DNA of 64,000 nt from a plasmid. The stretch is taken from sequence record NZ_CP027239.1; one strand, 5' to 3'. The notes below the pieces were generated by a model. The model was given only the letters and a program-made list of their open reading frames with translations, was not told the origin of the DNA and made no database searches. The position numbers and the translations under genes are program-made. Below, piece after piece: positions 4,424-55,113 of this stretch (positions are counted from its first letter, which is position 1; each line of letters begins with the position of its first letter).

Positions 4424-7400
4424 CTATGCCGCAGCCTGCTCGTTGGCCTGGTCCTGCGCCAGGACGGCGATCCGTGCGGTGACGCGGTCGAGCTTGGCCT
4501 GCGCGTCGGTCAGCTCCTGCTCGCGGTCGAAGGTGAGCGAGTCGGCGACCGCGCGGAGCTGGTCGGCGTCGCGGCGCAACGCGTCGCGGCTGTCGTTGAG
4601 GCGGTTGATCTGCTCAGGCAGCCCCCTCGACCAGTCGTAGACGATCCGGTACAGCGCGTCAGCGAATCCGCTGGCAGAGCGGGGGACTGGACGGGGAAGG
4701 TCGAGGTGAGCCAGGACCGTTCCCCACCTGCACACCTGCACCGCGCGGCCCTTGCCGTACTCGGTGCGCTGCAGCGAGAGTTCGCCGAAGCGGTAGCGGC
4801 GGCTGTCGCGGCCCCGCAGGCTGCCGGCGGCCTCGTTGGCCTGCTCACGGGTCAGCGTGCGCTGGGTGTGCGTGAGGTTGGTGTGCACCCACTGCAGGGC
4901 CTGCGCGGCATCGTCTGCCCGGGCCGCAGAGTCCTCCCTGTGGCGGGCCTGGCTGAGCATGGCCTGCAGCTGCGCGCGGTGGGAGGCCCGGGCGATCTTG
5001 AGCTTCTGCACGGCCGCGGAGAGCGTGGCCTGCTCGATCAGTTCGGGGTGGCCGGTAGCTGCTGCGCTGACCTCGGCGAGGGAGACAGCGTCGCCGGAGA
5101 TGTCGAGGATTTCCCGATCCAACGGGGCGTTGGTGAACATCTGCTCGATCATCTGGTGCTTGCGGCGCACCGCGGCGGACACGAGCCCGTCGAAAGTGCC
5201 CTCGGTGACAACGGTGACGATGTCGACCGCCGGATTGAGGTTGCCCGGCCGCACCGCGCGACCTTCGCGCTGCCCCAAACTCGCCGCGGTCCAGGGCATA
5301 TCCACGTGATACAGCGCGCTGAGCCGGCGCTGCGCATTCACGCCGACGCCAGCCTTGGACGAACTGCCGAGCAGGACCGACACGCTGCCGACGCGGCACG
5401 CGGCGAACAGCTCCTCGCGCGCCTGAGTGGTGGCCGCCTCGTGAATGAACCGGATCCTCTCGGCCGGCAGCCCACGATCCACGAGCAGATCCCGCAGACG
5501 CCCATAGGTGCGGCCGTCGGGCCCGTGGGGCGATCCCAGGTCCAGGCACACCAGCTGGAACGTGCCGGTGGCGTCGCTGCCGGGGTAGCGGCGGTCGATG
5601 TTGGCCCAGTAGTGCTCGGCGATGCGATCGGCGGCCACGATCAGCTTCGGGGACGGCGCGTTGACGCCGACCAACTGGGGGTCCAGGGCCAGGGCGCGGC
5701 CGTCGTTGCACACCTTGAGAATGTTGTCGCCGCCGGGCTCGTTGCGGAACCCCTGCATCCGCAGCGCCTCGACCCGCTCCGACAGCGTGCGCATGTGCGC
5801 GATCTGGGCGGGGCTGGGCTTGGCGACCAGCAGGTGGCGGTTCACCTCGGGCCGCTCCAGGGGCAGTTCTGCGGAGGGCAGCATGTCGGTGAAGGCGCGC
5901 ATCATGGTTCGTGCTTCGGGGGCGTTGCGGATGCGGGCCGGGCGGGTGACAGCGCGAAGGTTCCCCCCGTCGGGCGAGGTTTCGATGACGGTCTCCCACT
6001 GGACGAAGGTGGCGGCCCAGGTGTCGAAGTTGCGACATTCCGCCTGGTCAAGCAGGGTGGGGGCGCAGATGCGCGCCCATACGAAAAGCTCCGAGAGGCT
6101 ATTTACAAACGGGGTGCCACTGCTGAGGGTCGCCACCGACCGGCCCGGGTACTTGGCGGCCAGGCTGGTGATCTTGATCAGCAGATCCAGGGCCCGCTGC
6201 GAGGTGCTGTTGCTCAGCCCGGACGTTCTCGTGGCGACGGGCAAGCCCTTGTAGAGGTGGGCCTCATCGACGCAAATATGGTCAACGGCCAGGTCGGCGA
6301 AGGTCAGAGCGTCGGGGTCATGGCGAGCCTCCCGCAGCGCGTCCATGCGGTTCTCCAGGGCGCGGCGGCGAGCGGCCAGCGCCTTGGCGCCACGAGTGCC
6401 GCCCTCGTCGCCGGACTGCAGCGCGGCCATCTCCTCGGCCAGGTAGGCCATCTCCACTTCGGGGTCCGCAGCCAGGGAGGTGAACAGCTCGTGGGAGACG
6501 ATCACCGCATCCCAATCACCGGCCGCGGCGCGGGCCACGAACTTGCGCTTGGCGCGGCCGGCGACCTGATCCTCAGTGGCGACAAGGAACTTCGCGGTAG
6601 GCCAGGTGGCGCGCGCTTCCCGGCTGAACTGAGCCAAAATAGGCTTCGGGACCGTGATAAGCGGCCGATTGGCCAGGCCGTATTCGCGCAGCTTAAGGCA
6701 CAATCCGACGAGCGTACGGGTCTTGCCGGCGCCGACTGAATGGGCCAAGTAGGCGGCCTGGTGTTCACACCGGAGTGCGTGGTCGATACCCCGCAGCTGG
6801 TTCTCCCACAGGGTCACCCCCGGCGCTATCGACGGGAACTGCAGATAGTCACCATTCGGACGCCTCGGGACCACCGAATTGTGCAGCCGGTTGTACCGCT
6901 CGCACGCCCGCTCGGCCCGCTGCGGATCCGACCACAGCCACACCGTGAACGCCTGCGTCAGCTCCACCAGGCGATCCGCCGCCAGCGCCGACTCCGAGGC
7001 GTTGCGTACCCGCCGCTCCCGCCGCGTCTCCGGGTCGGTGACCGTGTCGTACACGACCGGAGTCCCACCATTGAGGCCCGCGGTGACGATCTCGGCGACC
7101 GTCATCCGCGACGTCCCGTATCTGGTCTGAGCCTGCGCAGACGCCCCGCCGTAGCCGGTATCGACATCCCACGCCGCCACCGCCGGGGTGTACGACACCC
7201 GCGCATACCGGTAGCCCATCTCCTCCTCCAGGAACCGGGCGATGTCGCCGCCGGCCAGCCACGCCGCACCGAACGCGACACTGATCTCATCGGGCCCCAG
7301 CTGCGGCGGAAGTACCTCCTCCAACGCCTCGACGTTGCGCGCGAACGAGCCGTCGAACTGCGCCGCGGCCCGCGCCGTATCCAGCTTCGCCGCGATGTTG

Positions 7401-9124
7401 CCCGACAAGTACTCCTCGGCCGGCAGCAACGCCCCACCGTCGGGGTCGCGGAACGCCAGATCGCCCAACGCCTGGTCGACCTCGGTCTCGTCGATGGACA
7501 GCAGCGCGGCCACCGTCGACGGCACCAGCCGACCGTGACGGGCCAGCGACACCGTCACCGCCTCCCCGGCAGTGTCGACTCGGCGAATCGGCTCCGGCTC
7601 CCTGTTGGTGCGCTGCAGCAGGATCGGCGCCGGATGTGCGGTGTGGGTGGCCTCGTCGTACTGCTCGATACCGAATACGACCTCGGCCTGCGGGTCGGCC
7701 CGGAATCCGCCCATCCGCGGTCGCCGCGCGCGGCGAGTGGGCTCGCCCGTTGCCGGGTCGACCGGGCCGTCGACCACGCTCATCCTGTTCAACGGACCGT
7801 AGGAGGCCACGTACTGCCGGTACAGGTCCAGGGCGCGGGAGCGCAGCGGGTCCAGGACGGCGTCGGGGCTATGCCGCTTGGCTTCGGTCTCGATCAGCTC
7901 CAGCACGGCATCTCGCAGCTGCACCAGCGCCTGCAGCTCCGCGTTCTTCGCGCCGCGCGCGGGCACGAGAGCGCCGTCGACGACCTGATGGGCCAGCCCG
8001 TCGATCAGGTGAAACGAGCCCTCGGGGCGGCCTTCGGCGTCGACCAGGATCTCCGCATCGCGCCAAGACGGCTTGCCGTCGCTCTCGCCCCACGCCGGCA
8101 TGCGCTGCCCCAGCGCGGCGAACGCCCGGTCCAGCATCTCCGACGGCTTGCGGGTGACCACCGCCAGCGAATTGCGGAAGTGCCCGGTCGCCCGCATCTG
8201 GCCGGCCACCAACTCCGGGTTGTCGACGAAGAATCGCGATACCCGCACCGGCTGCACGCGGGCATCACCGGCCCGCACGGGCGTGTCGATCATCGCCGAC
8301 CCGAACGCCACCTGCTGCCGGTCACCGCCCTCGTCGAACGGCTGCCGGATCTGCAAAACCAGCAGGTCGGCGACAACATCCGTGCCCTCACCGGCAAACG
8401 CCTTCGACGGCAGCCGCACAGCGCCCACGAAGCGGGCCCGATCAGCGATCGCCGCCAGACCCTCCCGGCTGTCGAGGTGGAACCGGGAGGTGATGATCGC
8501 GACCAGGCCGCCCGGCCGCACCGCCTCAACCGCGCGCTGCAGGAAATAGCCGTGAAGGCTCGGGGCCGCGCCGTGCTTCGAGTGGATCCAGCCCGTGCCG
8601 AACGGCACGTTGCCCACCACCAGATCGAAACCCCCCGTCGGCAGGGTGACGTCCTGCAGCCGCTCACCCACGATGCGGGCCCGCGGATTGGCCAACTGGG
8701 CGATCTGCGCGGCCGTGGGGTCGATCTCCACCCCGTGGTAGTCGATGTCGAGCCCGTCGGGGCAGGCCAGAGCAAAGCGGCCGTGCCCGCACCCCAGGTC
8801 CAGCACCCGCCCGCCGGTGAACCCGGCATCGGACAGCAGGCTCCAGATCCGGCCAGCGACGTCCTCGCTGGTGTAGAAGGCGTTGTCGACCTGCTCGCTA
8901 CCGCGCGCCAACGCCTCCGCCCCCAGCAGTTCCTCCAACTGCTCGCCGATCCGCGCCCATGTCGCGGTCTGCTCCCGCTCAAAGATCGGGGCCAGCGGCC
9001 CCCAGCCGGGCCATGCCGCCAGCGCGGCGTGCTGCTCGGCCGTCAGCTCGTGACGGTTGGGCTTGGCGGCGAGCACCTGAGCGGCAGCGACAGCGGCGTG
9101 GCCGAACTTCGGCGAAGAGCTCAT
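4424..9124 (-). CDS. giant N6-adenine DNA methyltransferase–SF2 (SNF2/DEAH-type) helicase fusion, 1566 aa; anti-restriction (DarB-like) candidate
   Basis: AdoMet motif I VLDLGCGHGRF. Motif IV GNVPFG (NPPF-like). Helicase Walker A SVGAGKTRT. DEAH box ICVDEAHLY. Helicase-C motif VI QREGRAVRPGN. Long C-terminal coiled coil. GGAAGGA RBS upstream of ATG 9124. The long plus-strand ORFs 4322..6739 and 6740..9418 are antisense shadows. Confidence 0.85.
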   Translation of the reverse strand: MSSSPKFGHAAVAAAQVLAAKPNRHELTAEQHAALAAWPGWGPLAPIFEREQTATWARIGEQLEELLGAEALARGSEQVDNAFYTSEDVAGRIWSLLSDAGFTGGRVLDLGCGHGRFALACPDGLDIDYHGVEIDPTAAQIAQLANPRARIVGERLQDVTLPTGGFDLVVGNVPFGTGWIHSKHGAAPSLHGYFLQRAVEAVRPGGLVAIITSRFHLDSREGLAAIADRARFVGAVRLPSKAFAGEGTDVVADLLVLQIRQPFDEGGDRQQVAFGSAMIDTPVRAGDARVQPVRVSRFFVDNPELVAGQMRATGHFRNSLAVVTRKPSEMLDRAFAALGQRMPAWGESDGKPSWRDAEILVDAEGRPEGSFHLIDGLAHQVVDGALVPARGAKNAELQALVQLRDAVLELIETEAKRHSPDAVLDPLRSRALDLYRQYVASYGPLNRMSVVDGPVDPATGEPTRRARRPRMGGFRADPQAEVVFGIEQYDEATHTAHPAPILLQRTNREPEPIRRVDTAGEAVTVSLARHGRLVPSTVAALLSIDETEVDQALGDLAFRDPDGGALLPAEEYLSGNIAAKLDTARAAAQFDGSFARNVEALEEVLPPQLGPDEISVAFGAAWLAGGDIARFLEEEMGYRYARVSYTPAVAAWDVDTGYGGASAQAQTRYGTSRMTVAEIVTAGLNGGTPVVYDTVTDPETRRERRVRNASESALAADRLVELTQAFTVWLWSDPQRAERACERYNRLHNSVVPRRPNGDYLQFPSIAPGVTLWENQLRGIDHALRCEHQAAYLAHSVGAGKTRTLVGLCLKLREYGLANRPLITVPKPILAQFSREARATWPTAKFLVATEDQVAGRAKRKFVARAAAGDWDAVIVSHELFTSLAADPEVEMAYLAEEMAALQSGDEGGTRGAKALAARRRALENRMDALREARHDPDALTFADLAVDHICVDEAHLYKGLPVATRTSGLSNSTSQRALDLLIKITSLAAKYPGRSVATLSSGTPFVNSLSELFVWARICAPTLLDQAECRNFDTWAATFVQWETVIETSPDGGNLRAVTRPARIRNAPEARTMMRAFTDMLPSAELPLERPEVNRHLLVAKPSPAQIAHMRTLSERVEALRMQGFRNEPGGDNILKVCNDGRALALDPQLVGVNAPSPKLIVAADRIAEHYWANIDRRYPGSDATGTFQLVCLDLGSPHGPDGRTYGRLRDLLVDRGLPAERIRFIHEAATTQAREELFAACRVGSVSVLLGSSSKAGVGVNAQRRLSALYHVDMPWTAASLGQREGRAVRPGNLNPAVDIVTVVTEGTFDGLVSAAVRRKHQMIEQMFTNAPLDREILDISGDAVSLAEVSAAATGHPELIEQATLSAAVQKLKIARASHRAQLQAMLSQARHREDSAARADDAAQALQWVHTNLTHTQRTLTREQANEAAGSLRGRDSRRYRFGELSLQRTEYGKGRAVQVCRWGTVLAHLDLPRPVPRSASGFADALYRIVYDWSRGLPEQINRLNDSRDALRRDADQLRAVADSLTFDREQELTDAQAKLDRVTARIAVLAQDQANEQAAA

Positions 9125-9414: not shown

Positions 9415-9975
9415 GTGACCGGCATGAGCGCACACATTGCAGACGAGGACGCCGTCACGATCACCGTCAACCTGCCCCTGCCGGTTGATGTCGCGGCGAC
9501 CCTGACCCGCGCGATCGGCGCCATCTGGCCGAACACCACCATGGACATGAGCAGCTACTCCAGCCGCATGACCTACCGGGTCACAGCTGCCGACCGCCTG
9601 GCTGACGACCTCGATCTCGAGCAGGTCCGCCAGGCGCGGATCGCGATGCGAGAAGAACTCGAAGGCATCATCACCCGAATCGGTGCTGGCGAGGTTGGCG
9701 GCATCCCCGCAGAGGAGTACCTCGTCTACGTGGCCGCGCTGGCCGAGGCTTTCCTCGACGAGCACGGCGCCGCGAACTACGTCGAGCAGATCCTGTCCAC
9801 CCCAGATGGCCGGCGGCTCACCGTCACCACCCATGGGGCACACGGGCAGACTCCAGTCGAGCACCGCAACGATGCGCGCGCGGAAGCCGCGCGGATGCAC
9901 CGCTTGGAGGCGCGACTGAGGGCCCGCATCGACGACCTGAAGCGCGAACTCGCGGTCGCGAACGGCAGCGCCTGA
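9415..9975 (+). CDS. hypothetical protein (186 aa)
   Basis: Complete ORF, GTG 9415 or ATG 9424 start. C-terminal coiled coil. No clear RBS. Confidence 0.4.
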   Translation: MTGMSAHIADEDAVTITVNLPLPVDVAATLTRAIGAIWPNTTMDMSSYSSRMTYRVTAADRLADDLDLEQVRQARIAMREELEGIITRIGAGEVGGIPAEEYLVYVAALAEAFLDEHGAANYVEQILSTPDGRRLTVTTHGAHGQTPVEHRNDARAEAARMHRLEARLRARIDDLKRELAVANGSA

Positions 9976-10084
9976 ACCGGGCTAGCAGGCTCGTCACCGG
10001 CGGCGGTTCGACGCTGCTGCACCCCGCATCCGCACAGCGAGGATGGGGAACACCGCAAGACGAACCCAACCCCGGGAGGCTCCG

Positions 10085-10309
10085 ATGCCCTACACACACG
10101 ACGACGTCAGCACCGCCGCCAACGGCGCAGCGAGCATGCTCGACGGTCTCGGCTTGGACCCCGACACCGCGACGCTGATCGACTTCGTCGTCAACGCCAC
10201 CCTGACGCTGCTCGAGAACGGGGACGCGGGTATCGAGGACGTCCTCGAGGAAAACTGGGACGACAGCGAGGACCGCGACACCATTCGCACCATCGTCACC
10301 GGCAACTGA
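10085..10309 (+). CDS. small acidic hypothetical protein (74 aa)
   Basis: ATG 10085 preceded by GGGAGG. Asp/Glu-rich. Confidence 0.4.
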   Translation: MPYTHDDVSTAANGAASMLDGLGLDPDTATLIDFVVNATLTLLENGDAGIEDVLEENWDDSEDRDTIRTIVTGN

Positions 10310-10549
10310 GAGAGGCATCCTCAGGGGAGGGGCCACAGCCACTCCGCCGCGCCAACCCAAGGGGTACAGGCGCACAGCCTGGGGCTGATGTGGCTGCAAT
10401 TAACTTCTGAGGCTACGGCGGTAACACCCCCAGCGGGCCAAGCGATTCCGGCCTAGCGACTAGGAAAAAGTCAGCGCAACGCAACGGCATGACCGTGACT
10501 TACCCTGATCGCAGCACGACCCATCGGAATCACTGCAAGGAGCACCTTC

Positions 10550-10942
10550 ATGGACCCCATCACGCTTGCCATCATCGCGGGCCTGCTCAATGTAGGCCCA
10601 GCCGTGGGCGGCTCCGTGGCCGCCGCCGGACCGGCAGCCGCCGCCATCGCCCCCGCCGCCGCCTCCATCGCCCCCGCCGCCGCTGGCGCGGCTGCCACTG
10701 CGCCCATCTGGGTCCCAGCCGCCGGTACCGGTGCCGCTGTGGCCGCAGGCGCTGGCAGCCTGGGCGCGGGATCCGCAGTCGCCAGCAACCCGGTGGCCGC
10801 CCAGGGCGCCGAGGCATGGTTCAACGACATCAACAACCAGGCCGTCATCGGCTCGGTCGAGGCCAACAACTTCGTCGCCGACGGCCTCAACCCGCACCTG
10901 CCGCCGGAGCATCAGATTCCGAAGCGCACCATCGGGTACTGA
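10550..10942 (+). CDS. Ala/Gly-rich small protein, probably envelope-associated (130 aa)
   Basis: AAGGAG RBS at 10536-10541. Hydrophobic N-terminus followed by a poly-Ala/Gly low-complexity region. Confidence 0.5.
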   Translation: MDPITLAIIAGLLNVGPAVGGSVAAAGPAAAAIAPAAASIAPAAAGAAATAPIWVPAAGTGAAVAAGAGSLGAGSAVASNPVAAQGAEAWFNDINNQAVIGSVEANNFVADGLNPHLPPEHQIPKRTIGY

Positions 10943-11151
10943 CCCCGGCACGAACACAGCAGTCGATGCGTAACGACCAGGGCTGGCCATCACACGGCCA
11001 GCCCTGGTCAGCATTTAACGACCCGCCAGCATCGCCATTGCTCCCGATGCAGCCCCGGCTCGACACGACGCGCCGGTAACATCCCCACCGCTGGACACAC
11101 TGGCTGTCCGCCACCCACGGCAGGCGAGCCCTCACGATCGGAGACAAACTA

Positions 11152-11328
11152 TGGGCGCACTCGGCGCAATACTCACCTCGGTAGCCGCAGCCATGGGCTC
11201 CGTTGCTGTCGGCGTCGGCGGCTGGAGCCTAGTCGCGACGGCAGTCAACAACGACGGCATCTGGCACGGCCTACCGATCGAACTCCAAACCGCGATCCGC
11301 GACGCGGGTCTGGCCCCGGGCCGCTAAC
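11152..11328 (+). CDS. small hydrophobic protein (58 aa), not in the ORF track
   Basis: ATG 11152 preceded by GGAGA. Translation MGALGAILTSVAAAMGSVAVGVGGWSLVATAVNNDGIWHGLPIELQTAIRDAGLAPGR, stop at 11326-11328. Predicted transmembrane helix. Confidence 0.3.
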
Positions 11329-11444
11329 CCCATGCGCAGCTCCGGCCGCCCCTGTCCACCCGACCAGGTGGACTGGGGCGGCCGGCCTCATTTCCGCCAG
11401 AGCCCCATCTCCGAACCGCGAACCGCCCACCCGGAGGTCCACGA

Positions 11445-11702
11445 ATGAAGCCGCTCGACGTGATCGCAGACATTGTCAGCGGCCCGTCCCTGCAAGGTGC
11501 TGCCTGTGTCGGCAAAGCCCCCCTGTTCGACGCTCGAGCCGACGGTGAACCCCGGGCCTCGTACCTGCGTCGCTACCGGCAAGCCGCCAGCATTTGCCGA
11601 ACCTGCCCTGTCCTTGAACGGTGCGATCAGGCGGCTAACGACGCCCCTGCCGGCCAATGCACCGGCATCTGGGCCGAACGCCGCTTCGGTCGCGGCGCGT
11701 AA
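11445..11702 (+). CDS. WhiB-like (Wbl) Fe-S transcription factor
   Basis: Cys pattern C(19)...C-x2-C-x5-C (CRTCPVLERC) and a C-terminal G[IV]W motif (GIWAERRFG). GGAGGT RBS. Confidence 0.7.
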   Translation: MKPLDVIADIVSGPSLQGAACVGKAPLFDARADGEPRASYLRRYRQAASICRTCPVLERCDQAANDAPAGQCTGIWAERRFGRGA

Positions 11703-11758
11703 CGGAAGTCGGGCTCGCGCCACCACGCCGACCAGGACGGGTGGCACGATCCTGTCGC

Positions 11759-14284
11759 ATGACCGCATTGATGATCGACGGTGCCGGCAGCCTCGACCGC
11801 GACGACGCGGTGACGGTGACGGAGCGCGGAGACGGCTGGGATGCAACCGTGTACGTGGCCGCCGTCGCCGATGTCGTCCCCCTCGGGTCGCCAGCAGATC
11901 GGTCAGCCTTGGCCCGGGTGCACACCCGCTACCGGCGCAGCGGAGTGAAACCCATGCTCGGACGAGAACTCGAGGACGCAGCCACACTGTCGTCCACCCA
12001 GCCGCGGCCCGTGGTGGCCATCGGCATGCGGTTCACCAACGACGGCAGCCTGACCGCGTCGTCCATCTCCCGCGACCTGCTGCCCGCCGGCGCCGCAATC
12101 GCCTACACGCACCAGCAGGTGGGGGCCGCCCTCTCCCCGAACTCAACCGATCCGCAGCGTGCCCAACTCAGTGCCGCGTACCGGCTGGCCAGGACGCTAA
12201 TAGCCGCCCGGCGGGCGGCCGGGGCATTCGCAGTCTTCGACGCAGCTCGCGGCATGGTCACCAGCGAAGAAGGCCAGCTGGTGGCCATGCAGTCCGGTCA
12301 GACTCCGGCCGCCTACCTGATCGTCCAAGAGCTGATGGTGGCCGCGAACGCGACGCTCGCACGGTGGGCCATCGAACTGGAACTGCCGATCCTGTTCCGC
12401 AATCACGTCCGATCGGCCGTCGCCCCGCCCGCGGACGCCCTGCTCGCCGACGTCGCCGCTGAACTGTCCGCCTCACCGGTGATGACGCCAGACGCCCTGC
12501 AGGCCCTCACCGCCCGGGTCAATCAGACGCTTCGCCCGGCGACGTACCAACCGGTGGCCATCGGTCACTTCGGCCTGCAGATTCCCGCCTACGCTCACGC
12601 CACATCCCCGCTGCGCCGCTACGCCGACCTCGTCACCCAGCGTCAGGTCCTGGCCCAGCTCGACGGTCTGGAGCCGCCGTACGCCCCGTCAGTGCTCGAC
12701 GACATCGCCGAGGCCATCAACAGCACCCTGCGCGACCGGGCCCAGCAGATTTCAGCGACGGCGTCGGCAACACGCCGCAAGCAAGCGGCCACCACCATCG
12801 CCTCCGGCGACTACACGCACACGCACGGCCGCGACTGGCTGCGCGTACTGAGGATCGCCGCCGACACAGCCCTGCCTCCCTCGCTCGCGACAGAGGTGCG
12901 CCGGCGGGCCGACGCCGGCGAACTGGACGGCGGGCAGCTGGCCGTGATGATGCGGGCGACCGGGCATGGGTGGCCGGGACTGCTCGAGCAGGTGATCGCC
13001 GCCGCGCGCCGGGTCACACCGCATGCCGCAGCCTCGACGATTTCCGCCTGGCACCAAGCCGAGGACGACGACCGGCCCGCGCCGCAGGCCGAGTACCGGC
13101 AGGACGGGCCGCCGCACGACCCAACCTTCACTGCACGGGTGACGTTCGCTGGGGTCGCCTCCTCGTGGACGTCCGCGGCGTCGAAGAAACTGGCAGAGAG
13201 GGAGGCCCTGTGGGAGATCGTTGAAGTGCTGGCCGGCGTGAGGGACGCCCCGACGCCGGCAGACCCGCCCCAGGTGGGCGACACCGGCCTCGCCCGGCAG
13301 CCGGCAGACCAGGCAACCCCAGAGGGGGCGCCGGTGGAGCTGGAGACACTGTCCGGCAAGGGCTGGCTTCGGGCCGCGCGGGCCTTGATCTCCGACCCGG
13401 CCGGCCGAGAAGACGAGCTGGCCCGCGAGCTGCGGCGCCGCGCCGACGACGGCACCCTGGAGCCCCCAGTGGTGGCAGCCCTGCTGGCAGACGACTCAGG
13501 CAGGTGGTGGCCGCTGCTGGGGGAGCTGGTGGCCACGATGCGCACCACGGCACCGCACGCCGCCAATTCGACCCTGTCGGCGTGGCAGCAACTACGCGGC
13601 GCCCCGGTTGGCTCCCCAGATCTGGAGGTGCGCCAGTTCGGCACGCCGCATGCCCCGTTGTTCGCCATCCGCGCCCGACTCCAGCAGTGGTTGACCTCGT
13701 GGCAGTGCGGCCACGCCAAGAAGGCGGCGGCGACTCAGCAGGCGCTATGGGACCTCGTGGACGTGATCGCAGGCAACGCCCCTCCCGGGGCCGTCGACGA
13801 CGCACCGACTGCCCCCGAGCTCGAGGCCGCCGCCGACAGGGAAAACGGCAAGACGATCGCCCTGGCCCACCTCAAGAGGGGGACCGGACGGGCAGCAGTT
13901 CCGCCTCACGCCGAAGGGCCGCTGATGTCATCGCCCGCCGAGGTCACAGCCAGCGCCCCGCCGCTGGCCCACACCGAGGTGCCCGCCCAGGTGCGCGAAC
14001 ACGCTGCCCTGGTAGCGGCCCTGGGAGGCACACCCACCGAAAGGGCCAAGAAGTACCGCAATGCCGTGAAATCGCCGACCGCCTGGATCAACAACCTGGC
14101 AGCAGTCCTGCACAGCGACGCCCCGGAGGTGGACACCACCAGCATCGAGGGCGGCTACACAGCCACGATCACGATCAACACCCCGGTAGGGGCAGTCGTC
14201 GGCAGTGGGGCCGGCACCAACCAGAAGACCGCCCGCGCAGTCGCTTCGCTGGGGATCGTGCTCCACCTGTTCTCCCTGACCTAA
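11759..14284 (+). CDS. RNase II/R-family (RNB domain) nuclease fused to three C-terminal dsRBD-like repeats
   Basis: RNB motif I LDRDDAVTV. Hallmark RNB motif HFGLQIPAYAHATSPLRRYADLVTQRQ. C-terminal half holds an internal duplication (EVRRRADAGELD...PHAAASTISAWHQA versus ELRRRADDGTLE...PHAANSTLSAWQQL). It also holds three DSRM-like signatures (FAGVASSWTSAASKKLAEREALWEIV, WQCGHAKKAAATQQALWDLV, VGSGAGTNQKTARAVASLGIVLHL). Start taken as the first in-frame ATG after the WhiB stop (ORF 11657..14284). Confidence 0.7.
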   Translation: MTALMIDGAGSLDRDDAVTVTERGDGWDATVYVAAVADVVPLGSPADRSALARVHTRYRRSGVKPMLGRELEDAATLSSTQPRPVVAIGMRFTNDGSLTASSISRDLLPAGAAIAYTHQQVGAALSPNSTDPQRAQLSAAYRLARTLIAARRAAGAFAVFDAARGMVTSEEGQLVAMQSGQTPAAYLIVQELMVAANATLARWAIELELPILFRNHVRSAVAPPADALLADVAAELSASPVMTPDALQALTARVNQTLRPATYQPVAIGHFGLQIPAYAHATSPLRRYADLVTQRQVLAQLDGLEPPYAPSVLDDIAEAINSTLRDRAQQISATASATRRKQAATTIASGDYTHTHGRDWLRVLRIAADTALPPSLATEVRRRADAGELDGGQLAVMMRATGHGWPGLLEQVIAAARRVTPHAAASTISAWHQAEDDDRPAPQAEYRQDGPPHDPTFTARVTFAGVASSWTSAASKKLAEREALWEIVEVLAGVRDAPTPADPPQVGDTGLARQPADQATPEGAPVELETLSGKGWLRAARALISDPAGREDELARELRRRADDGTLEPPVVAALLADDSGRWWPLLGELVATMRTTAPHAANSTLSAWQQLRGAPVGSPDLEVRQFGTPHAPLFAIRARLQQWLTSWQCGHAKKAAATQQALWDLVDVIAGNAPPGAVDDAPTAPELEAAADRENGKTIALAHLKRGTGRAAVPPHAEGPLMSSPAEVTASAPPLAHTEVPAQVREHAALVAALGGTPTERAKKYRNAVKSPTAWINNLAAVLHSDAPEVDTTSIEGGYTATITINTPVGAVVGSGAGTNQKTARAVASLGIVLHLFSLT

Positions 14285-14421
14285 AAGCCAAGCCCGCAGC
14301 CGCGGCCGAGCTGTCCGGCGTCGGCCGCTCCACGGGCCACGGCATCACGGCCGCGAGACCACAATTCAAGAACGCAGGGAGATCCTGACGGCGCTACCCA
14401 CCCCGCCCTCAGGAGGTCACA

Positions 14422-14763
14422 GTGACCCTCACCGACCCCATCCGCCCGCCGGCGCCAGCCCGCGACGTCGAGCGCATCGTCTGCCCCACCTACGCCGACG
14501 TCGTGCATCTCATGCGCAGCTACCGGCACCATCAACTGGTCACTGCTGGCGCCCTCGCTGATCGAGACCAGGCCCAGCACCTCATCGGCAAGAGGCTCGC
14601 CAATGCCGGCCGCCCACTCGCCGGCACAGTCGTGGTCACCTCACACCAGCAGCGACTGCTGGCCTTCCACGGAGACATCAGCGCCGTCGACGGGCTGGCG
14701 ATTGAGTTCACCAACGGTGGCCAACTGCCCATGAATAGGCTGGTCGCGGTCGGTATCTGCTGA
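14422..14763 (+). CDS. hypothetical protein, tandem paralogue A (113 aa)
   Basis: GTG 14422 after AGGAGG. C-terminus GDISAVDGLAIEFTNGGQLPMNRLVAVGI matches the next gene. Confidence 0.5.
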   Translation: MTLTDPIRPPAPARDVERIVCPTYADVVHLMRSYRHHQLVTAGALADRDQAQHLIGKRLANAGRPLAGTVVVTSHQQRLLAFHGDISAVDGLAIEFTNGGQLPMNRLVAVGIC

Positions 14764-14835
14764 ACTGCTGCAGTCCCGCACGGCGGGTGGATCGTAGGGG
14801 CATCAGAAACAAGCCCACCCCCCAGGGAGCACGCC

Positions 14836-15195
14836 ATGGACACGATCGCCTTCGCCGCCCTCGCAGGAATCGTCGCTGACATCGACCCCACCGCGGTCGT
14901 GCAGACCTGCCCGCAGCGATCCGAGACCGCCGCCCACGACCTGGCCGACCAGATGCCGCACTCGATGCACATCGCACTCGACGCCCAGGACCGCCGGGCC
15001 ACGCTTCCCGCCAAGATCACCGACCGCATCGGCGCGAACTGGGGACGTGTGCCCGCCGTGGTCATCGCCCGAAGCCCGCGCGGCGACTTCTACGCCTTCA
15101 TCGGCGACATCGTCGGGGTCGACACCTTCACCCTGCAGTTCGCCAATGACCTCCGCGTCCCCCTCGGCCGCGTCGTCGCCGTCGGCCTGGACTGA
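14836..15195 (+). CDS. hypothetical protein, tandem paralogue B (119 aa)
   Basis: AGGGAG RBS. C-terminus GDIVGVDTFTLQFANDLRVPLGRVVAVGL parallels paralogue A. Confidence 0.5.
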   Translation: MDTIAFAALAGIVADIDPTAVVQTCPQRSETAAHDLADQMPHSMHIALDAQDRRATLPAKITDRIGANWGRVPAVVIARSPRGDFYAFIGDIVGVDTFTLQFANDLRVPLGRVVAVGLD

Positions 15196-15475: not shown

Positions 15476-15537
15476 GAGATCGAGCTGCCGCTCGATCTCG
15501 ACAATCCCGGCCCTCCGGCAAGAGGGCCGGGATTGAC
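15476..15537. terminator. two consecutive perfect hairpins (terminator-like)
   Basis: cgagatcgagc-tgcc-gctcgatctcg at 15476-15501. aatcccggccctc-cggcaaga-gggccgggatt at 15507-15537, followed by gactattttg. Lies downstream of the minus-strand membrane-protein gene and in a 400-bp non-coding stretch. Confidence 0.35.
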
Positions 15538-15600: not shown

Positions 15601-16533
15601 TCAGGCCTTCGAGTCAGCGAGCTCGACCAGCATCCGATGCGCCACCACCGGATCCCGCGTCGACCTCCACAGAGACCAGCTACTCCCCGACGGAATCAAA
15701 GCCTCGTCCAGGAACACATCCGGAGCGTGGGCGTGGCTGTCCTGCCACTCCTGAATCCGGTCCCTCAGCAGCCGGTAACGACCCACTCGGCGCCCCACAG
15801 CGGCGCCCAGCATCAACAGCAGTCCAGTGGCGCCGGAAAGGATGGCGCACGCCAACGTCGCCAGCGAAATCTGAGGGGCGTGCGCGCTGTACCAAGGCCA
15901 TACATTGAAGTACTCGACCGTGAGGTTGACGACCTTGTGCGCCACATACGCAGACCCGAACAGGCCTGAGGCAGACACCGAGGCCACCGCAATGCGGGGG
16001 ACGCCCGGCCGGAACACCGCGGCAGCTCGCCCAGCGAGCCCCGCGACCGTCGCCGATGAGGACCCCAGGCACAACAGGTAGATCAGCCAGTAAATGGCGA
16101 ACCATCCGGTCATGTCGAAGTCCTGGCTCATGAACGCCGTCGGGGCGTGCGGCACGGGCGACAGGGCGAACGTCACGGCCATGCCCACCACAACGGCACC
16201 GATTGAGCCGACCAGCAGGAGCTTCCGAAATGGGCGTCCGAAGATTCCGGCCACGGCATGCACCAGGAAGATCGCCCCGACCGCGCCGAGCGTCATCCCG
16301 GAGTAGTCAGTCACGTTCCATACCCCTGACCAGGAGTGGAACCAGCCGTCGATCCACTCGTCGGACACCACCGGAGTGCGAGCCAGCTTCCCCAGGCCGA
16401 AACAGAGCAGCGAAGCCGACAGGTGGTGGGCGTACGGGCCCGCTGTCCGCATGGTCATCAACCGGTGCAGCGCCAGGAACACCGCGAGAAGGCAGATGAT
16501 GGTGACGACAGCCGTCCCGATCATGACTTCCAC
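15601..16533 (-). CDS. polytopic integral membrane protein (310 aa)
   Basis: At least seven hydrophobic segments. Start overlaps the ImmA-like stop, so it is the last gene of the XRE–ImmA operon. Confidence 0.6.
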   Translation of the reverse strand: MEVMIGTAVVTIICLLAVFLALHRLMTMRTAGPYAHHLSASLLCFGLGKLARTPVVSDEWIDGWFHSWSGVWNVTDYSGMTLGAVGAIFLVHAVAGIFGRPFRKLLLVGSIGAVVVGMAVTFALSPVPHAPTAFMSQDFDMTGWFAIYWLIYLLCLGSSSATVAGLAGRAAAVFRPGVPRIAVASVSASGLFGSAYVAHKVVNLTVEYFNVWPWYSAHAPQISLATLACAILSGATGLLLMLGAAVGRRVGRYRLLRDRIQEWQDSHAHAPDVFLDEALIPSGSSWSLWRSTRDPVVAHRMLVELADSKA

Positions 16534-17087
16534 CCCAGAGCGGCCAAGAAGCGTTCAGCGATCGCGTACGAGCTTCGGTCGTGCCCATCGAGGTAGACCT
16601 GGCCACGCACGGCGTCGGCGCGAGTCTGAATGATCGTGGCCATCCATTCCGCTGTTTGCTCCAGCTCTGAGATGTAGGAAGCGCGAGCGAAACAGACGCG
16701 TGCCGGTCCGAGCTGGGACAGGAACCCCTCGGGCAGGTTCGGGGCCAGGCGCCGGAGCTGAGCGCGGTAGGTATCAGCATCGAGATCGTCAGCGCCCTCG
16801 TGGGCGAGGACTACGTGGGCGAGCTCGTGACACCGGACGTGCTCCTGATAGTTGGCGTTGCCGCGGGTGGTGATGTAGATCCGGTTGATGCTCGGCGAGG
16901 GCACCCACAGTCCACTGATCTCGTCCTCCAGTGAGGCCGGCAGCGGGGAAACAGTGATTGGTTTGCCGGTAATCAGCCCGATACTGGCGGTGAACTCGTC
17001 GATGTCCCACGGGCGTCGGATCGGCAGGGCTTCGACAAGTCGCTCAGCGGTGTGCTGAGGATCGCGTGCAGTCGGCTTTCTGAGCAT
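16521..17087 (-). CDS. ImmA/IrrE-family (DUF955) zinc metallopeptidase
   Basis: HEXXH motif HELAHVVLAHE in the usual position. Downstream of an XRE regulator, which is the classic anti-repressor protease arrangement of mobile elements. Confidence 0.65.
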   Translation of the reverse strand: MLRKPTARDPQHTAERLVEALPIRRPWDIDEFTASIGLITGKPITVSPLPASLEDEISGLWVPSPSINRIYITTRGNANYQEHVRCHELAHVVLAHEGADDLDADTYRAQLRRLAPNLPEGFLSQLGPARVCFARASYISELEQTAEWMATIIQTRADAVRGQVYLDGHDRSSYAIAERFLAALGWKS

Positions 17088-17094
17088 GCTCGTG

Positions 17095-17483
17095 TCAGTC
17101 CGGCTTCCGGGAGGGATCGAGCAAGTTGAGAAGGTTCTCGCGGGCCTCGGGGCTCAGCTCGGACCCTGCTCGGAGCTGCACTAGAGCCGGCGAGGTCCGG
17201 TTGAGCTCGGCGAGCGCTTGCAGGCTGTTCCATGCGGGCAGGACGATGGCTGGGTCGTCGCCGAGCAACACCTCTGGGCCGATCTGGATCGAGTCCATCA
17301 CCGCATCGACTACGGGCGCAGGGACGGAGTCCACGTCCCCGGCGCGGAGCGCGGCGATGTGTGCTGGTGTCACGTTGATCCCATGCGAGCTGCTGACGCG
17401 GCCGGCGACGGAGACGTCGAGGTCGCCTGCCTCGGGGTGCAGCAGCGACAGGGCAAGTGCGAACCGCTGTCCGACAGTAGGCA
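17095..17483 (-). CDS. hypothetical protein; 5' end possibly disturbed by the IS insertion
   Basis: ORF 17095..17589 runs right up to the IS left inverted repeat with a low-complexity Pro-rich N-terminus. The first plausible internal start is ATG 17483. Stop is 8 nt before the ImmA start. Confidence 0.35.
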
Positions 17484-17587
17484 TCTCGGACTCGGACCGG
17501 TGGTCCACTGGGGAATCAGTCACAAGTCCTCCTTCTGGTGGTTGGGGGGTGGGGGGCGGGCGCGGGCTAGGAGCGTGGGTCAGTAAC

Positions 17588-19122
17588 ACGCCAGTTCAGG
17601 TCCGCTGATGGGGCGGGTTCGGCGGGATAATTGTCGTCATGGGCGAGGAAGGGTTGTTCGCCGCCGAGGAGTTCCGCGTCGAGCGGGCTGACCGGCAGGG
17701 CGAGGTCGAGCCGGTGGGCGCAGGCAAGACATTTCGGGCGTTCGACCCGGGCCAGGGGTTGTTGCTGCCGCCGTCGCTGGATGACTGGCTTCCGGCCGAT
17801 CATCTGGCACGGTTCGTGGCGGATCTGGTCGATGAGCACCTGGATTTATCGCGGATCTACGTCTCCTACCAGGAGGGGCGCGGGGCCCCGCCGTACGATC
17901 CGCGGTTGATGGTGCGGTTGCTGATCTTCGGCTACACCACGGGGGTGCGCTCCTCCCGCGGGATCGAGAAGGCCTGCACCGACATCGTCGCTTTCCGGTG
18001 GTTGGCGGCCGGGGCGGCCCCGGACTACCGCGCGATCGCCAGGTTTCGCAAGAGGCACCTGGCCGCGCTGGGCAACCTGTTCTTGCAGGCGTTGGCGTTG
18101 TGCCAGGCCGCCGGGATGGTCACGCTTGGACAGGTCGCGCTGGATGGGACGAAGCTGCGGGCGAACGCCTCCAAACGCAAGGCCATGTCGTACGCGCGGC
18201 TGACGGACAAGGAGAAGGTACTGGCCCAGGAGGTCTCCGATCTGCTGGCCGCCGCCGAGGCCATCGACAAGGCCGAGGACGCCAAGTTCGGCAAGAACCG
18301 GCGCGGGGACGAGCTGCCCGATGAGCTGGCCCGCCGAGAGTCTCGCCTGGTCAAGCTGCGCCAGGCCAAAGCTGCTCTGGAAGCCGACGCCGCCGCCGAT
18401 GCGGCGGAGAAGGCTGAGGCTAAGGCCCGCGGTAAGGGCGAAGACGAAGACACCGTCGCGCAGAAGGCCGCTGAGGCCGCCGAGCGCGCCACGCCCAGGC
18501 CGAAGGCCCAGCGCAACTTCACCGACCCGGAGTCGAAGATCATGCTCACCGGGGACGGGTCGTTCGCTCAGTGCTACAACGGCCAGGCCGTGGTCGATGC
18601 CGCCCATCAGATCATCGTGGCGGCCGAGGTCAACGACTGTGCCGCCGACGTCGGCAACCTCATCCCCATGACCGAGCAGGCCATCAGCAACACGGGGCAG
18701 GCCCCGAAGCAGATGCTCGCCGATGCCGGGTACTGCTCAGCCGCGAACCTCGCCGCCTCCGCCGAGGTCACCGGCGAGCAGGGCACCGAGTTCTTCATCG
18801 CCACCGGACGACAGCGCAGCGGGGAACCGGCGCCGATCGCCCCCCGGGGACCGATCCCGGCCAGCGCCACGGACAAGCAGCGCATGGCCCGCAAGCTCGC
18901 CACGAAGAAAGGCCGAGCGGTCTACGCCCGGCGCAAAGCGATCGTCGAACCGGTCTTCGGACAGATGAGCACCCTGCAGAACGGCAAGCAACTCCTGATT
19001 CGCGGTCTGGACGCCGCCCGCGGTGAATGGCTACTGCTCGCTGCCTGCCACAACCTGCGAAAGCTCCACGGTCATATCGGCGCCACCGGGCTCGGCGGCC
19101 TCCAGATCGCCTGAACTGGCAG
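17588..19122 (+). mobile_element. IS1182-family insertion sequence (about 1.5 kb) with terminal inverted repeats
   Basis: Left end ACGCCAGTTCAGG (17588-17600). Right end CCTGAACTGGCAGG (19110-19123) is its reverse complement (11-12 of 13 match). Single transposase ORF between them. Flanking genes are on the opposite strand. Confidence 0.7.
17639..19114 (+). CDS. IS1182-family (IS5 superfamily) DDE transposase
   Basis: N-terminal InsH-like region PPYDPRLMVRLLIFGYTTGVRSSRGIEKACTDIVAFRWLAAG...YRAIARFRKRH. Central Lys/Ala/Glu coiled-coil insert. C-terminal DDE region NFTDPESKIM...CYNGQAVVD...IIVAAEV...LADAGYCS. Confidence 0.85.
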   Translation: MGEEGLFAAEEFRVERADRQGEVEPVGAGKTFRAFDPGQGLLLPPSLDDWLPADHLARFVADLVDEHLDLSRIYVSYQEGRGAPPYDPRLMVRLLIFGYTTGVRSSRGIEKACTDIVAFRWLAAGAAPDYRAIARFRKRHLAALGNLFLQALALCQAAGMVTLGQVALDGTKLRANASKRKAMSYARLTDKEKVLAQEVSDLLAAAEAIDKAEDAKFGKNRRGDELPDELARRESRLVKLRQAKAALEADAAADAAEKAEAKARGKGEDEDTVAQKAAEAAERATPRPKAQRNFTDPESKIMLTGDGSFAQCYNGQAVVDAAHQIIVAAEVNDCAADVGNLIPMTEQAISNTGQAPKQMLADAGYCSAANLAASAEVTGEQGTEFFIATGRQRSGEPAPIAPRGPIPASATDKQRMARKLATKKGRAVYARRKAIVEPVFGQMSTLQNGKQLLIRGLDAARGEWLLLAACHNLRKLHGHIGATGLGGLQIA

Positions 19123-24695: not shown

Positions 24696-25027
24696 ATCGC
24701 CTGGACCGACGTCACCTCGGCGCCTGTCGTGTTCGCGCCCAGCAGGGCCGTGTCGCTGCCGGTGGCGTACATCTCGACGATGTCGGCACTGAACTTCTCG
24801 ATGAGCTCGCCGGAGAGCTCCTCGCAGAACGGCACCACCACATCCCGGCCGAAACGGCAGACCCGGCCGATGTCGGGCACGGGAGCCCCACACTGGCGGG
24901 CCCACACATACGCGGCCGTAGCCACGCGCCTGGACTCAGCGAACCCACCGGGCCCGGAAACCGTCACCAGCAGTGTCGTTGCCTCCCCGACCTGGGTCGG
25001 GCGCGCCCACCGGGGAAGCCCGGTCAC
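24692..25027 (-). CDS. hypothetical protein translationally coupled to the AAA+ ATPase (111 aa)
   Basis: GTGA start/stop overlap with the AAA+ gene (25024-25027). Confidence 0.5.
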   Translation of the reverse strand: MTGLPRWARPTQVGEATTLLVTVSGPGGFAESRRVATAAYVWARQCGAPVPDIGRVCRFGRDVVVPFCEELSGELIEKFSADIVEMYATGSDTALLGANTTGAEVTSVQAI

Positions 25028-26304
25028 TGCAGCTCCTGCTGCACCAGTGGCCCGACGGGCGAGCCGAACACCTCGACCAGGACGTCGAGCACCTCAGGCT
25101 GGTGCTGCGGCTCCGGGCACGCAGCGAACAGCATCGACGCCGCGACTTGGACGCCCATCCCCATGTCGAGAGCCTTCTGCGACTTGAGCAGATGGTCAGT
25201 TTGGGGCGCCCACCCTGGCCGGCGCCCGGACTGGCCCGCCACCGCGGCCCGCGCAGCCAGCAGCCGGCCCACGCGGACCAGGCGGGCATCGACACCCAGT
25301 TCGGCCACGAGGCCGTAGTCAGTGGTGGCTTCGAGCTGCAGAGGAAAGCGGCGCAGAATTGCCGCATCGAGGGGCCGCACACCGACCCCGGTCTGGTTGT
25401 AGGTGACGACGATGTGGAATCCGTCGGCGGCGTGCAGCACCGGCTCGTCGGGCAGTGCGTCGATGACGAGCATCCGACGGTCGTCGGCGGGGCCCATGAG
25501 CACGTTGATCGTGTCGGATGGCGCTCGAGTCAGATCGTCGATCAGCAGCACCTTGCCCTGACGCATGGCCTCGGCCAGTGGGCCGTACGCGAACCGGTAC
25601 CCGGGACCGTCTTCGCGCGGGATCCACTTACCGACCAGGTCATCGACGGCCAGGTCGCCGTGCCCTTCGACGACAATCAGGTCTTCTCCGAACGCCGCCT
25701 CGGCGAGCATGGTCTTGCCGTTGCCCGACGCGCCCACGATGCGGGTGAACAGGGAGCCACGCGCCTGGCGCAGGATCTGCACATCGGTAGTGTCGCCGAC
25801 CGGCCGGGGACGGTAGACGCGCCCGTCGCGCAGTGGCACCGACTCCAGCGGGCCGGCGAAGCTGGCGGGTGTGGACGAGGGGGAGGGCTGGACCGGTTCG
25901 GGATCCGGTGTCGCCTCTAATTCCGGCACCGCGAGGGCCGCCTGAACACTGCCTTCCAGGTCACCGAGCATCGACGCGGCCGGGGGCGATCCCTCCAGCA
26001 GCTGCACCAACTGCTCGTGCGTGGGTCCTTCATCGTCGACCTGCAGGTAGGCCACATCGGCGAACGCCCGCGCGGGCGCCGCCTCGGTGAACGCCTCCCC
26101 GGCCTCTTTGCTCAGCAGGGACGCATCCGCCGAGAGCATCAGCCCCGACTGCCCTCGGTAAGCGGCCACCAGTTGCGGGCCGGCCTCCGGGTCACACCAC
26201 AGCAGCATCGCATCGGGCTGGCCTGCGCCGCGGGGCGCCTTGCCCCTACGTCTCCACCAGGCGACGGGCAGCGTGGTGGTCAGGGCAGTGGCAGTCGAGG
26301 TCAT
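25024..26304 (-). CDS. MoxR-like AAA+ ATPase (AAA_5 type), module 1
   Basis: Walker A GASGNGKT. Walker B VLLIDDL. Sensor-1 IVVTYNQ. Arg finger RRF. ATG 26304 with a GAAGGA RBS. The upstream part of ORF 25024..27135 has no support. Paralogue of 57516..58748. Confidence 0.8.
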   Translation of the reverse strand: MTSTATALTTTLPVAWWRRRGKAPRGAGQPDAMLLWCDPEAGPQLVAAYRGQSGLMLSADASLLSKEAGEAFTEAAPARAFADVAYLQVDDEGPTHEQLVQLLEGSPPAASMLGDLEGSVQAALAVPELEATPDPEPVQPSPSSTPASFAGPLESVPLRDGRVYRPRPVGDTTDVQILRQARGSLFTRIVGASGNGKTMLAEAAFGEDLIVVEGHGDLAVDDLVGKWIPREDGPGYRFAYGPLAEAMRQGKVLLIDDLTRAPSDTINVLMGPADDRRMLVIDALPDEPVLHAADGFHIVVTYNQTGVGVRPLDAAILRRFPLQLEATTDYGLVAELGVDARLVRVGRLLAARAAVAGQSGRRPGWAPQTDHLLKSQKALDMGMGVQVAASMLFAACPEPQHQPEVLDVLVEVFGSPVGPLVQQELQ

Positions 26305-26475
26305 GGGCGGGGATCCTTCATCGTGTCGGAGTGCGCGGCTAGGGTGTGGCGCCCAGTATGCGGGGCCACTGTGGCGGTGTGGCACCACAGCGGCACGGGC
26401 GCAGGGCACCATCACTGGCACCGCAAACCGCCTACCCCTGGAGCTGTTTCCCCGTGATCTCCTCGCGCCCACTCG

Positions 26476-27251
26476 TGACCTACCCACTACGGGAGGCGTC
26501 TGTCGTCGAACAGGACTCCGCCACCGCGGTCGCGGAACGCTTGGACCGGGCCGCCGACCGCGGAATGGACGAAGCCACCGTCGCCTACCCAGTCCCGCCC
26601 GGGCGGGTCGACATGAGCCAGGCGATGCAGTCCGATGCGCAGGCCTACCTCGGGCTGCCGAGTTCGGCGACCCCGTTCCGTAGAAGACAGCGACGCATCC
26701 TGCGGCGCCCCGCCCAGCGGGTCGGCATCGCCATCGACCATTCGCCCTCGATGCACGACGTCCTGGACGCGGCCGTCGCTGCGGCGTGGGTAGTGGAGGT
26801 GGCCGCCTCGCGCGCCCGGCAGGCACGCAGCACCGTTGCACTGTCGACGTTCGACACCACGGCCCACCTGGTCGAGTCGGGCTCGACCACGCACGTACCG
26901 GTGCTTTCGACCGCCGCTCCCGGCGCCGGGAACCACTCCTCAGCGCTGCCGGAGTCGCTCGAGCTGCTGCGGGGGCAGCTGGAGCTGGACCACTTCCCTG
27001 ACGACTCCCGGCTGGTCGTGGTGATCTCTGACAGCGTGCTGGCAGAGCCGGAGCGGGTCGCCCACGCGATCGACGATCTGCACGCAAGTGGCGTGCGGGT
27101 GCTGTGGATCTCGATCGACGAAGACGTCCCCGCATACCTCCCGGCCGCGACGGCCACTCTCACCGCGACCAAGGAGACGCTGATGCGGGCCTTGCCCGAC
27201 GCGGTCACCCAGGCACTGAGCGACACCGAGAACCCGGAGGGATACCAATGA
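26476..27251 (+). CDS. vWA (von Willebrand factor A) domain protein, module 1
   Basis: MIDAS DxSxS motif GIAIDHSPSM. Downstream T and D positions (LSTFDT, VVISDS). Divergent from the AAA+ gene. Start uncertain: GTG 26476 or ATG 26564. Confidence 0.55.
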
Positions 27252-48954: not shown

Positions 48955-49108
48955 CAGAGGCCCCTTCCCTTACCGCAATTTGTTCCGATCGACAAAATCG
49001 TATCGCACGGGCGTGTTATAGCCCTCCGAACTCGCGAGCTCCGCACGACACCACAGTTGTCAGTACGCGCCGATAGTGTCGCGCCGACGCTTAACGAATG
49101 GAGCCCCT

Positions 49109-55093: not shown

Positions 55094-55113
55094 CAGACCT
55101 GGAGGAGACATCA

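Follow-up and report, generated by a model that had tools for sequence, protein, structure and literature searches.

We examined the interval 11445..14284 of a 64,000-nucleotide stretch of a plasmid (sequence record NZ_CP027239.1; the whole stretch is referred to below as the window) and found that it holds two co-directional genes, not one: a short WhiB-like gene (11445..11702), followed by a gene for a ribonuclease in which an RNase II-family (RNB) catalytic domain is joined to two copies of a helical domain and to three domains of the double-stranded RNA-binding type (dsRBDs). This RNB-helical-dsRBD architecture marks a defined family that crosses phyla and is not unique to this plasmid; only the doubled helical-dsRBD module is special to a Dietzia-type clade. 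Judging from its domain chemistry, we consider it probable that the protein is a hydrolytic 3′–5′ exoribonuclease, tethered by its dsRBDs to duplex or structured RNA and serving the turnover or processing of plasmid RNA.

Domain architecture of the plasmid ribonuclease

The ribonuclease gene lies within a single long open reading frame (ORF; 11657..14284, + strand) that would encode 875 amino acids from an upstream ATG at 11657. We prefer the ATG at 11759, which yields a protein of 841 amino acids, on the basis of the RefSeq annotation and an alignment of 102 homologues; the alignment begins at the MID...DRDD motif. The longer form would overlap the 3′ end of the WhiB-like gene. Residue numbers below refer to the 841-amino acid protein unless ORF residues are specified. 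The shorter form matches WP_165001188.1, 'RNB domain-containing ribonuclease [Dietzia]', with 100% identity, and the longer form is 100% identical to AVM66165.1, labeled '(plasmid) [Dietzia sp. oral taxon 368]' and encoded on a 227,619-bp contig. It is this exact protein identity with AVM66165.1 that locates the gene on a plasmid, in agreement with a preliminary description of the locus, which had placed it on a mobile element. Megablast searches of PLSDB with the locus and with positions 1–25000 of the window as queries gave no match; the protein content of the remainder of the window is compatible with a large actinobacterial plasmid. The gene and its parts are as follows.

11759..14284 (+): RNB-dsRBD ribonuclease gene, 841 amino acids plus stop (875 amino acids from the alternative ATG at 11657)
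11759..12805 (+): RNB catalytic domain (residues 1 to ~305) and long helix (residues 310–349), from Pfam, Foldseek and conservation
12806..13018 (+): four-helix domain, copy 1 (residues 350–420); AlphaFold helices 357–419, predicted local distance difference test (pLDDT) score >90
13016..13243 (+): dsRBD1 (residues 420–495) with GPPH loop and SKK motif, from Pfam dsrm and AlphaFold topology
13340..13552 (+): helical domain, copy 2 (residues 528–598), a duplicate of copy 1, from BLASTP and hhalign
13550..13777 (+): dsRBD2 (residues 598–673) with GTPH loop and AKK motif, from hhalign and AlphaFold topology
13922..14074 (+): short helical region (residues 722–772) before dsRBD3; AlphaFold helices, pLDDT >90
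14066..14281 (+): dsRBD3 (residues 770–841), a divergent dsRBD without a GPxH loop and with NQKTAR at the start of helix 2

The catalytic domain was identified at the levels of sequence, active site and fold. Pfam RNB matched residues 2–301 (ORF residues 36–335) with an E value of 1.8e-49 and a score of 169 bits against a cutoff of 29.3. The motif HFGLQIPAYAHATSPLRRYADLV, from which the preliminary description had recognized an RNB-family nuclease, does align with the active-site motif of RNase R: IDGAGSLDRDDAV aligned to IDGEDARDFDDAV of E. coli RNase R, with the motif I aspartates lying in IDGAGSLDRDD, and SPLRRY, which carries the conserved Arg of motif IV, aligned to SPIRRY of the same enzyme. 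None of the 102 homologues departs from D7, D15, D16, R286 and R287, and D13 is kept in at least 90% of them. With the homologue alignment as input, AlphaFold2 produced a model of mean pLDDT 90.8, and Foldseek matched the N-terminal 350 residues of this model to RNase R, RNase II, Rrp44 and Dis3L2, with E values between 1e-17 and 1e-10 (best 2.6e-17). Given that the RNB fold and the active-site residues are common to RNase R and RNase II, a processive hydrolytic 3′–5′ mechanism is expected, and from the conserved active site we infer that the protein is a catalytically competent RNB enzyme.

The best catalytic-domain matches in the Protein Data Bank (PDB) and NCBIfam are RNase R and RNase II, as would be expected if the protein were simply the host's ordinary orthologue of one of these enzymes. 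However, its equivalog scores were far below the cutoffs, at 133.2 bits against 597.85 for RNase R (TIGR02063) and 53.7 bits against 641.9 for RNase II (TIGR02062). Pfam found no match to a cold-shock domain (CSD) or S1 domain in the protein, and AlphaFold modeled its C-terminal half as helices and alpha-beta-beta-beta-alpha domains, not OB barrels. With an RNB domain that begins at residue 2 and is followed by no OB-fold, the protein is without the CSD1, CSD2 and S1 of the canonical enzymes; dsRBDs are present instead, and the gene is plasmid-encoded. These domain tests refute an ordinary RNase R or RNase II orthologue, for which we see practically no chance. The preliminary description, which took the canonical CSD and S1 domains to have been replaced and allowed that the repeats might yet fold as CSD/S1 domains of a host RNase R, was thus borne out: the repeats fold as dsRBDs.

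The AlphaFold model orders the C-terminal half as a helix (310–349), the four-helix domain (357–419), dsRBD1 (423–491), a disordered linker, helical domain 2 (533–597), dsRBD2 (601–670), a second disordered linker, the short helical region (726–771) and dsRBD3 (773–838). Both linkers, at 508–522 and 689–714, have pLDDT values below 50 and are compatible with flexible tethers. An internal duplication had already been noticed in this half, and it could be delimited: module 1, made up of the helical domain and dsRBD1, shares 40% identity with module 2 over 153 amino acids (BLASTP E 5e-23; ORF residues ~391–534 versus 567–718). The repeat became visible only after the segments were split, as self-BLAST of the whole C-terminal half returned the identity match alone. 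The two helical copies are related to each other (hhalign E 1.5e-12), while the short helical region before dsRBD3 gave no significant hhalign match to either of them and appears unrelated. In copy 1, E379 is near-invariant and R383 invariant across the family, almost every member of which carries this domain directly after RNB. Searches of Pfam and of PDB sequences with the helical domain, including a profile search, produced chance-level matches only and revealed no relative.

Three dsRBD-like repeats had also been proposed for the C-terminal half, and in the predicted structure all three indeed show the alpha1-beta1-beta2-beta3-alpha2 fold. Only dsRBD1 passes the Pfam dsrm model directly (PF00035; 27.8 bits in the whole protein and 25.6 bits alone, with a gathering cutoff of 23). 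Neither BLASTP nor Pfam gave a match for isolated dsRBD2, dsRBD3 or the helical domains, so that profile-profile and fold comparisons were needed for dsRBD2 and dsRBD3. By hhalign, dsRBD2 and dsRBD1 are clear paralogues (E 2.7e-22), and dsRBD3 is related to dsRBD1 at E 3.7e-11. In dsRBD structures, the GPxH loop and the KK motif (canonically KKxAK, at the start of helix 2) make the minor-groove and phosphate contacts to double-stranded RNA (dsRNA). The loop and the KK motif are kept in dsRBD1 (as GPPH and SKK) and dsRBD2 (as GTPH and AKK), and GPxH is lost in dsRBD3. The last domain is degenerate and may serve protein contacts or bind RNA more weakly.

A cross-phylum family without a conserved partner

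Homologues that combine RNB and dsrm occupy the first 112 database clusters, and a scan of one genome per species yielded at least 572 related stretches. Dozens of actinobacterial genera contain RNB-helical-dsRBD proteins, as do Pseudomonadota, Chloroflexota, Bacteroidota, Armatimonadota and Patescibacteria, so the architecture, called atypical in the preliminary description, is not peculiar to this element. Databases annotate the domains of family members without a function, under the label 'RNB domain-containing ribonuclease' only. Custom domain profiles, applied to 88 fetched loci, distinguished the following classes.

RNB-hel-dsRBD-dsRBD: 63 loci, most Actinomycetota
RNB-hel-dsRBDx3: 14 loci, in Pseudomonadota, Ktedonobacteria, Patescibacteria and others
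RNB-(hel-dsRBD)x2-dsRBD: 4 loci, namely the window, Dietzia sp. 179-F (counted twice, as loci L007 and L009) and one metagenomic contig

Among these 88 loci, two helical domains were found in the Dietzia-type clade only. Pfam independently shows RNB together with dsrm in a gammaproteobacterial metagenome-assembled genome, a Pseudomonas megaplasmid, Ktedonosporobacter and Prolixibacteraceae. When 1.84 billion proteins were searched with the helical-plus-dsRBD module, only ~50 representative clusters matched. The module sits at positions ~340–530, right after RNB, in most of the longer matches (~500–870 amino acids); the remaining matches are short fragments or have the module elsewhere, some of them covering the dsRBD part only. 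The relatives with two dsRBDs, found on plasmids of Gordonia, Rhodococcus, Mycolicibacterium and Streptomyces and on Glycomyces chromosomes, belong to the same family as the window's protein, with 33–47% identity and the domain order kept. They carry one helical-plus-dsRBD module and a canonical terminal dsRBD in ~590–660 amino acids, whereas the Dietzia-type protein has a doubled module and a degenerate terminal dsRBD in ~840 amino acids.

Tblastn searches of plasmids matched 105 records, including 37 from Rhodococcus, 4 each from Gordonia and Mycolicibacterium, 2 from Mycobacterium and 5 from Streptomyces, with others making up the rest. The best 40 of the 105 are actinobacterial, and the non-actinobacterial matches may be canonical RNase R or RNase II; we place the family on at least ~40 actinobacterial plasmids. 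Some Rhodococcus megaplasmids have 2–4 separate matches (e.g., NC_008269.1, R. jostii RHA1 pRHL1), so that single Rhodococcus replicons harbor an expanded set of paralogues. The plasmid-borne copies sit amid regulatory and maintenance genes that vary from one plasmid to another: MerR and WhiB in Gordonia, mIHF and a cutinase-family protein in R. pyridinivorans, ParAB in R. opacus, and Lsr2 in Dietzia and Gordonia. Unbiased clustering of the neighbours at the 88 loci revealed no partner common to different lineages and none conserved outside close relatives.

A different setting was found in ~24 Glycomycetales species, where the gene is chromosomal and, in conserved synteny and with no small partner, immediately precedes tyrS on the same strand. 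The distance to tyrS is ~40 nucleotides in Glycomyces and Salininema and ~630 nucleotides in Stackebrandtia (loci L023, L024 and L047, ~4900..8700), and the two genes possibly form an operon in this order. In Glycomyces and Salininema, a 500–590-amino acid protein rich in Arg, Gly and Asp follows. A phage collection contained distant catalytic-domain matches only (18–41% coverage) and no family member, and, at E ≤ 0.01, neither the nuclease nor the WhiB-like protein matched a PADLOC-DB v2 model.

Neighboring genes in the window

The ribonuclease gene belongs to a co-directional block (9415..15195) with a strong terminator downstream. The other features of this block that concern us are listed here.

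11445..11702 (+): WhiB-like gene, 85 amino acids, 56 bp upstream of the RNB gene; Pfam Whib
14422..14763 and 14836..15195 (+): two small paralogous ORFs of 113 and 119 amino acids in the same co-directional cluster, given as context only
15502..15535 (+): terminator-like hairpin, a 14-bp stem followed by a T-run, closing the block 9415..15195

The position of the ribonuclease gene downstream of a WhiB-like gene, noted in the preliminary description, was confirmed. The WhiB-like protein scored 28.1 bits with Pfam Whib against a cutoff of 23.6, and its translation contains C21, C51, C54 and C60 in the arrangement C-X29-C-X2-C-X5-C, a four-Cys Fe-S motif, along with a GIWAE turn; NCBIfam gave no match to it. 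A WhiB-like gene lies within 2 kb of the family member at 8 of the 88 loci, from Dietzia (L007 and L009, the same contig counted twice), Gordonia and four Streptomyces, one of the latter being a plasmid. These WhiB-like neighbors show three different arrangements, and WhiB-like genes are common on actinobacterial mobile elements. For these reasons we did not adopt the idea that WhiB and the nuclease are firmly linked in function; the proximity of WhiB-like genes to family members is suggestive, not conclusive.

The two small ORFs downstream are 40% identical over 53 amino acids at their C-termini (E 5e-10), and Pfam gave no match to either. One of them has a weak AbiEi match in PADLOC (E 4.8e-4, 17.9 bits). 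Homologues turned up in Dietzia sp. 179-F alone, with other genes lying between them there. An Rfam scan of the window gave no match, and a sigma-70 promoter scan returned nothing, which is uninformative at the ~69% G+C of the genome.

Several other genes of the window were noted in passing. Divergent from the ribonuclease block, 4424..9124 (−) encodes a 1566-amino acid fusion that joins an N-terminal S-adenosylmethionine (SAM) methyltransferase to an SNF2-type helicase; its PADLOC similarity to mad2, BrxH and DrmD is weak, and it is probably a plasmid anti-restriction or transfer-associated protein. A gene for a DUF3846 protein is also present. Three consecutive ORFs at 15601..17589 (−) encode a 310-amino acid multi-pass membrane-like protein with no Pfam match, a metallopeptidase and, upstream of the latter, a protein of 164 amino acids. 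The metallopeptidase is of the ImmA/IrrE type, with a weak Peptidase_M78 match and a PADLOC capP match at E 7e-6, and these ORFs may comprise a CapH/CapP-like or ImmR/ImmA-like regulatory pair. Just past the ribonuclease block, 17639..19114 (+) encodes a DDE transposase (DUF772, DDE_Tnp_1, DDE_Tnp_1_6) that marks an insertion sequence.

Farther along, 30987..33248 (+) encodes a 753-amino acid protein in which an RNase T/DEDD exonuclease domain is fused to a UvrD-type helicase; on the metagenomic contig L008, a YqaJ-RNase_T protein is encoded near the RNB homologue. Two AAA_5 (McrB/dynein-like) ATPases and an 826-amino acid SMC/AAA_23 protein, encoded at 25024..27135 (−), 54996..57476 (+) and 57516..58748 (−) amid ORFs without an assigned role, could have plasmid defense or partition functions. 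A DnaG-type primase (38930..40744, +), a 1214-amino acid cutinase-domain protein (41677..45321, −) and a DUF87/TrwB-like ATPase (49076..51322, +) make up a set that resembles the conjugation regions of Rhodococcus and Gordonia plasmids. A cutinase-family gene also adjoins the RNB homologue of R. pyridinivorans pB.

Proposed mechanism, alternatives and significance

The protein combines parts that are familiar from separate systems. With RNase R and RNase II (PDB 5xgu, 8cdu and 2ix0) it has in common the RNB fold, the four Asp residues of motif I and the Arg of SPLRRY; it differs from them in lacking CSD1, CSD2 and S1, in carrying a novel helical domain and dsRBDs C-terminally, and in being plasmid-borne. 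The compact RNase II-family protein of Deinococcus radiodurans (PDB 2r7d; 469 residues) matches the catalytic domain with a phmmer E value of 1.7e-14 and a Foldseek E value of 8e-15 (template modeling (TM) score to the target, 0.55). The 2r7d entry carries no dsrm or dsRBD label, and we take its accessory domains to be of the OB or winged helix-turn-helix type. The dsRBD fold, for its part, is common to RNase III, TRBP, Loquacious, R2D2, Staufen and MLE/DHX9, and tandem dsRBDs on flexible linkers bring such an enzyme to a duplex. By contrast with RNase III and the eukaryotic dsRBD systems, in which the dsRBDs accompany an endonuclease, a helicase or a deaminase, the catalytic partner here is predicted to be a processive exonuclease.

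From these comparisons, we suggest the following mechanism. A helical domain specific to the family, together with tandem dsRBDs joined by flexible linkers, would have taken the place of the OB-fold RNA-binding domains (CSD1, CSD2 and S1). Through its dsRBDs the enzyme is most likely anchored on A-form duplex RNA, candidate substrates being sense/antisense duplexes, long hairpins and products of RNase III. Its RNB domain would next attack a 3′ end close by, which would make the enzyme a duplex- or structured-RNA-directed exonuclease, not a general scavenger of single-stranded RNA. On the plasmid, its role would probably be RNA turnover or processing, for example the clearing or processing of the element's own antisense-RNA duplexes. 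The family as a whole consists of solo genes, inherited vertically in Glycomycetales and carried on plasmids in Mycobacteriales, and in the Dietzia-type clade a tandem duplication of the helical-plus-dsRBD module gave rise to the three dsRBDs. Two observations weigh against this proposal. Our literature search found no study of bacterial RNB-dsRBD proteins, and the family's strong enrichment on Mycobacteriales plasmids, where some Rhodococcus megaplasmids have several copies, would also fit a conflict-related role.

An alternative role would be that of an anti-defense or establishment factor, which destroys structured host RNAs that endanger the plasmid (CRISPR RNAs, retron RNAs or antitoxin RNAs) or removes response-triggering dsRNA when the plasmid enters a new cell. 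The family has a strong presence on Mycobacteriales and Streptomyces plasmids, and the window's gene sits in a block of small ORFs without an assigned role, divergent from the methyltransferase-SNF2 helicase gene and near the DUF3846 gene. Such features are typical of plasmid transfer and establishment regions, and the role would need no conserved partner. However, the chromosomal copies beside tyrS in Glycomycetales resemble housekeeping genes, and the phage collection, in which anti-defense genes are also common, holds no family member; we regard this role as improbable. The preliminary description had also raised a toxin or defense effector, with an antitoxin to be sought among ORFs 14422..15195. 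The nuclease would then be a toxin or an abortive-infection-type effector that degrades cellular RNA once freed from an inhibitor encoded by a small adjacent ORF. Mobile-element nucleases are often toxins, and two small ORFs follow the gene, one of them with its weak AbiEi-like match. Yet the neighbors differ in every genus examined, the small ORFs recur in one other Dietzia only and are separated there by other genes, no PADLOC model matches the nuclease, and Glycomycetales keep the gene on the chromosome as a conserved singleton upstream of tyrS. The lack of a conserved neighbor and of a PADLOC match, together with the tyrS synteny, argues against a toxin-antitoxin or known defense system. 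Thus, neither the effector nor its antitoxin found support, and a toxin role is unlikely; we give it very little credence.

The dsRBD-fold domains could, alternatively, serve protein-protein contacts, dimerization or ribosome binding, with the enzyme acting as a general single-stranded-RNA exonuclease in a partner complex. The missing GPxH loop of dsRBD3 would agree with this, as would the presence of the ribosome-binding protein YfiA among the weaker Foldseek matches. On the other hand, GPxH and KK are not only kept in dsRBD1 and dsRBD2 but conserved across the family, and the terminal dsRBD of the two-dsRBD relatives is canonical (GPPH ... K.AAK), and we find this explanation quite improbable. 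We therefore favor an exoribonuclease directed to duplex or structured plasmid RNA; of the options in the preliminary description, a plasmid RNA-processing factor is the most compatible with the observations. The enzymatic activity, the targeting of dsRNA and the biological role are all inferred here from the domains and their setting.

Mycobacteria lack RNase R and RNase II (PMC12767347), and the plasmid copies in Mycobacteriales would thus add an RNA-decay activity that is missing from at least some hosts. It is conceivable, though we put this forward only tentatively and with considerable doubt, that the family forms a distinct class of exoribonucleases that degrade double-stranded or structured RNA from 3′ ends and are brought in by Mycobacteriales mobile elements, where they control antisense duplexes or disarm host RNA functions; the triple-dsRBD form would then be tuned to longer duplexes. 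To our knowledge, every bacterial RNB enzyme characterized so far grips its substrate through OB-fold domains and depends on a single-stranded 3′ tail. The presence of dsRBDs in place of OB-folds predicts another substrate logic, duplex-directed exonucleolysis. The family is small, well defined and readily accessible to biochemistry, a good target for enzymology and not an isolated oddity, and, if active on dsRNA, the enzyme may be of use as a reagent. Duplex-directed exonucleolysis could account for the clearance of antisense or structured RNAs in Actinobacteria, with plasmids as the vehicles that would bring RNA decay of this kind into hosts without it.

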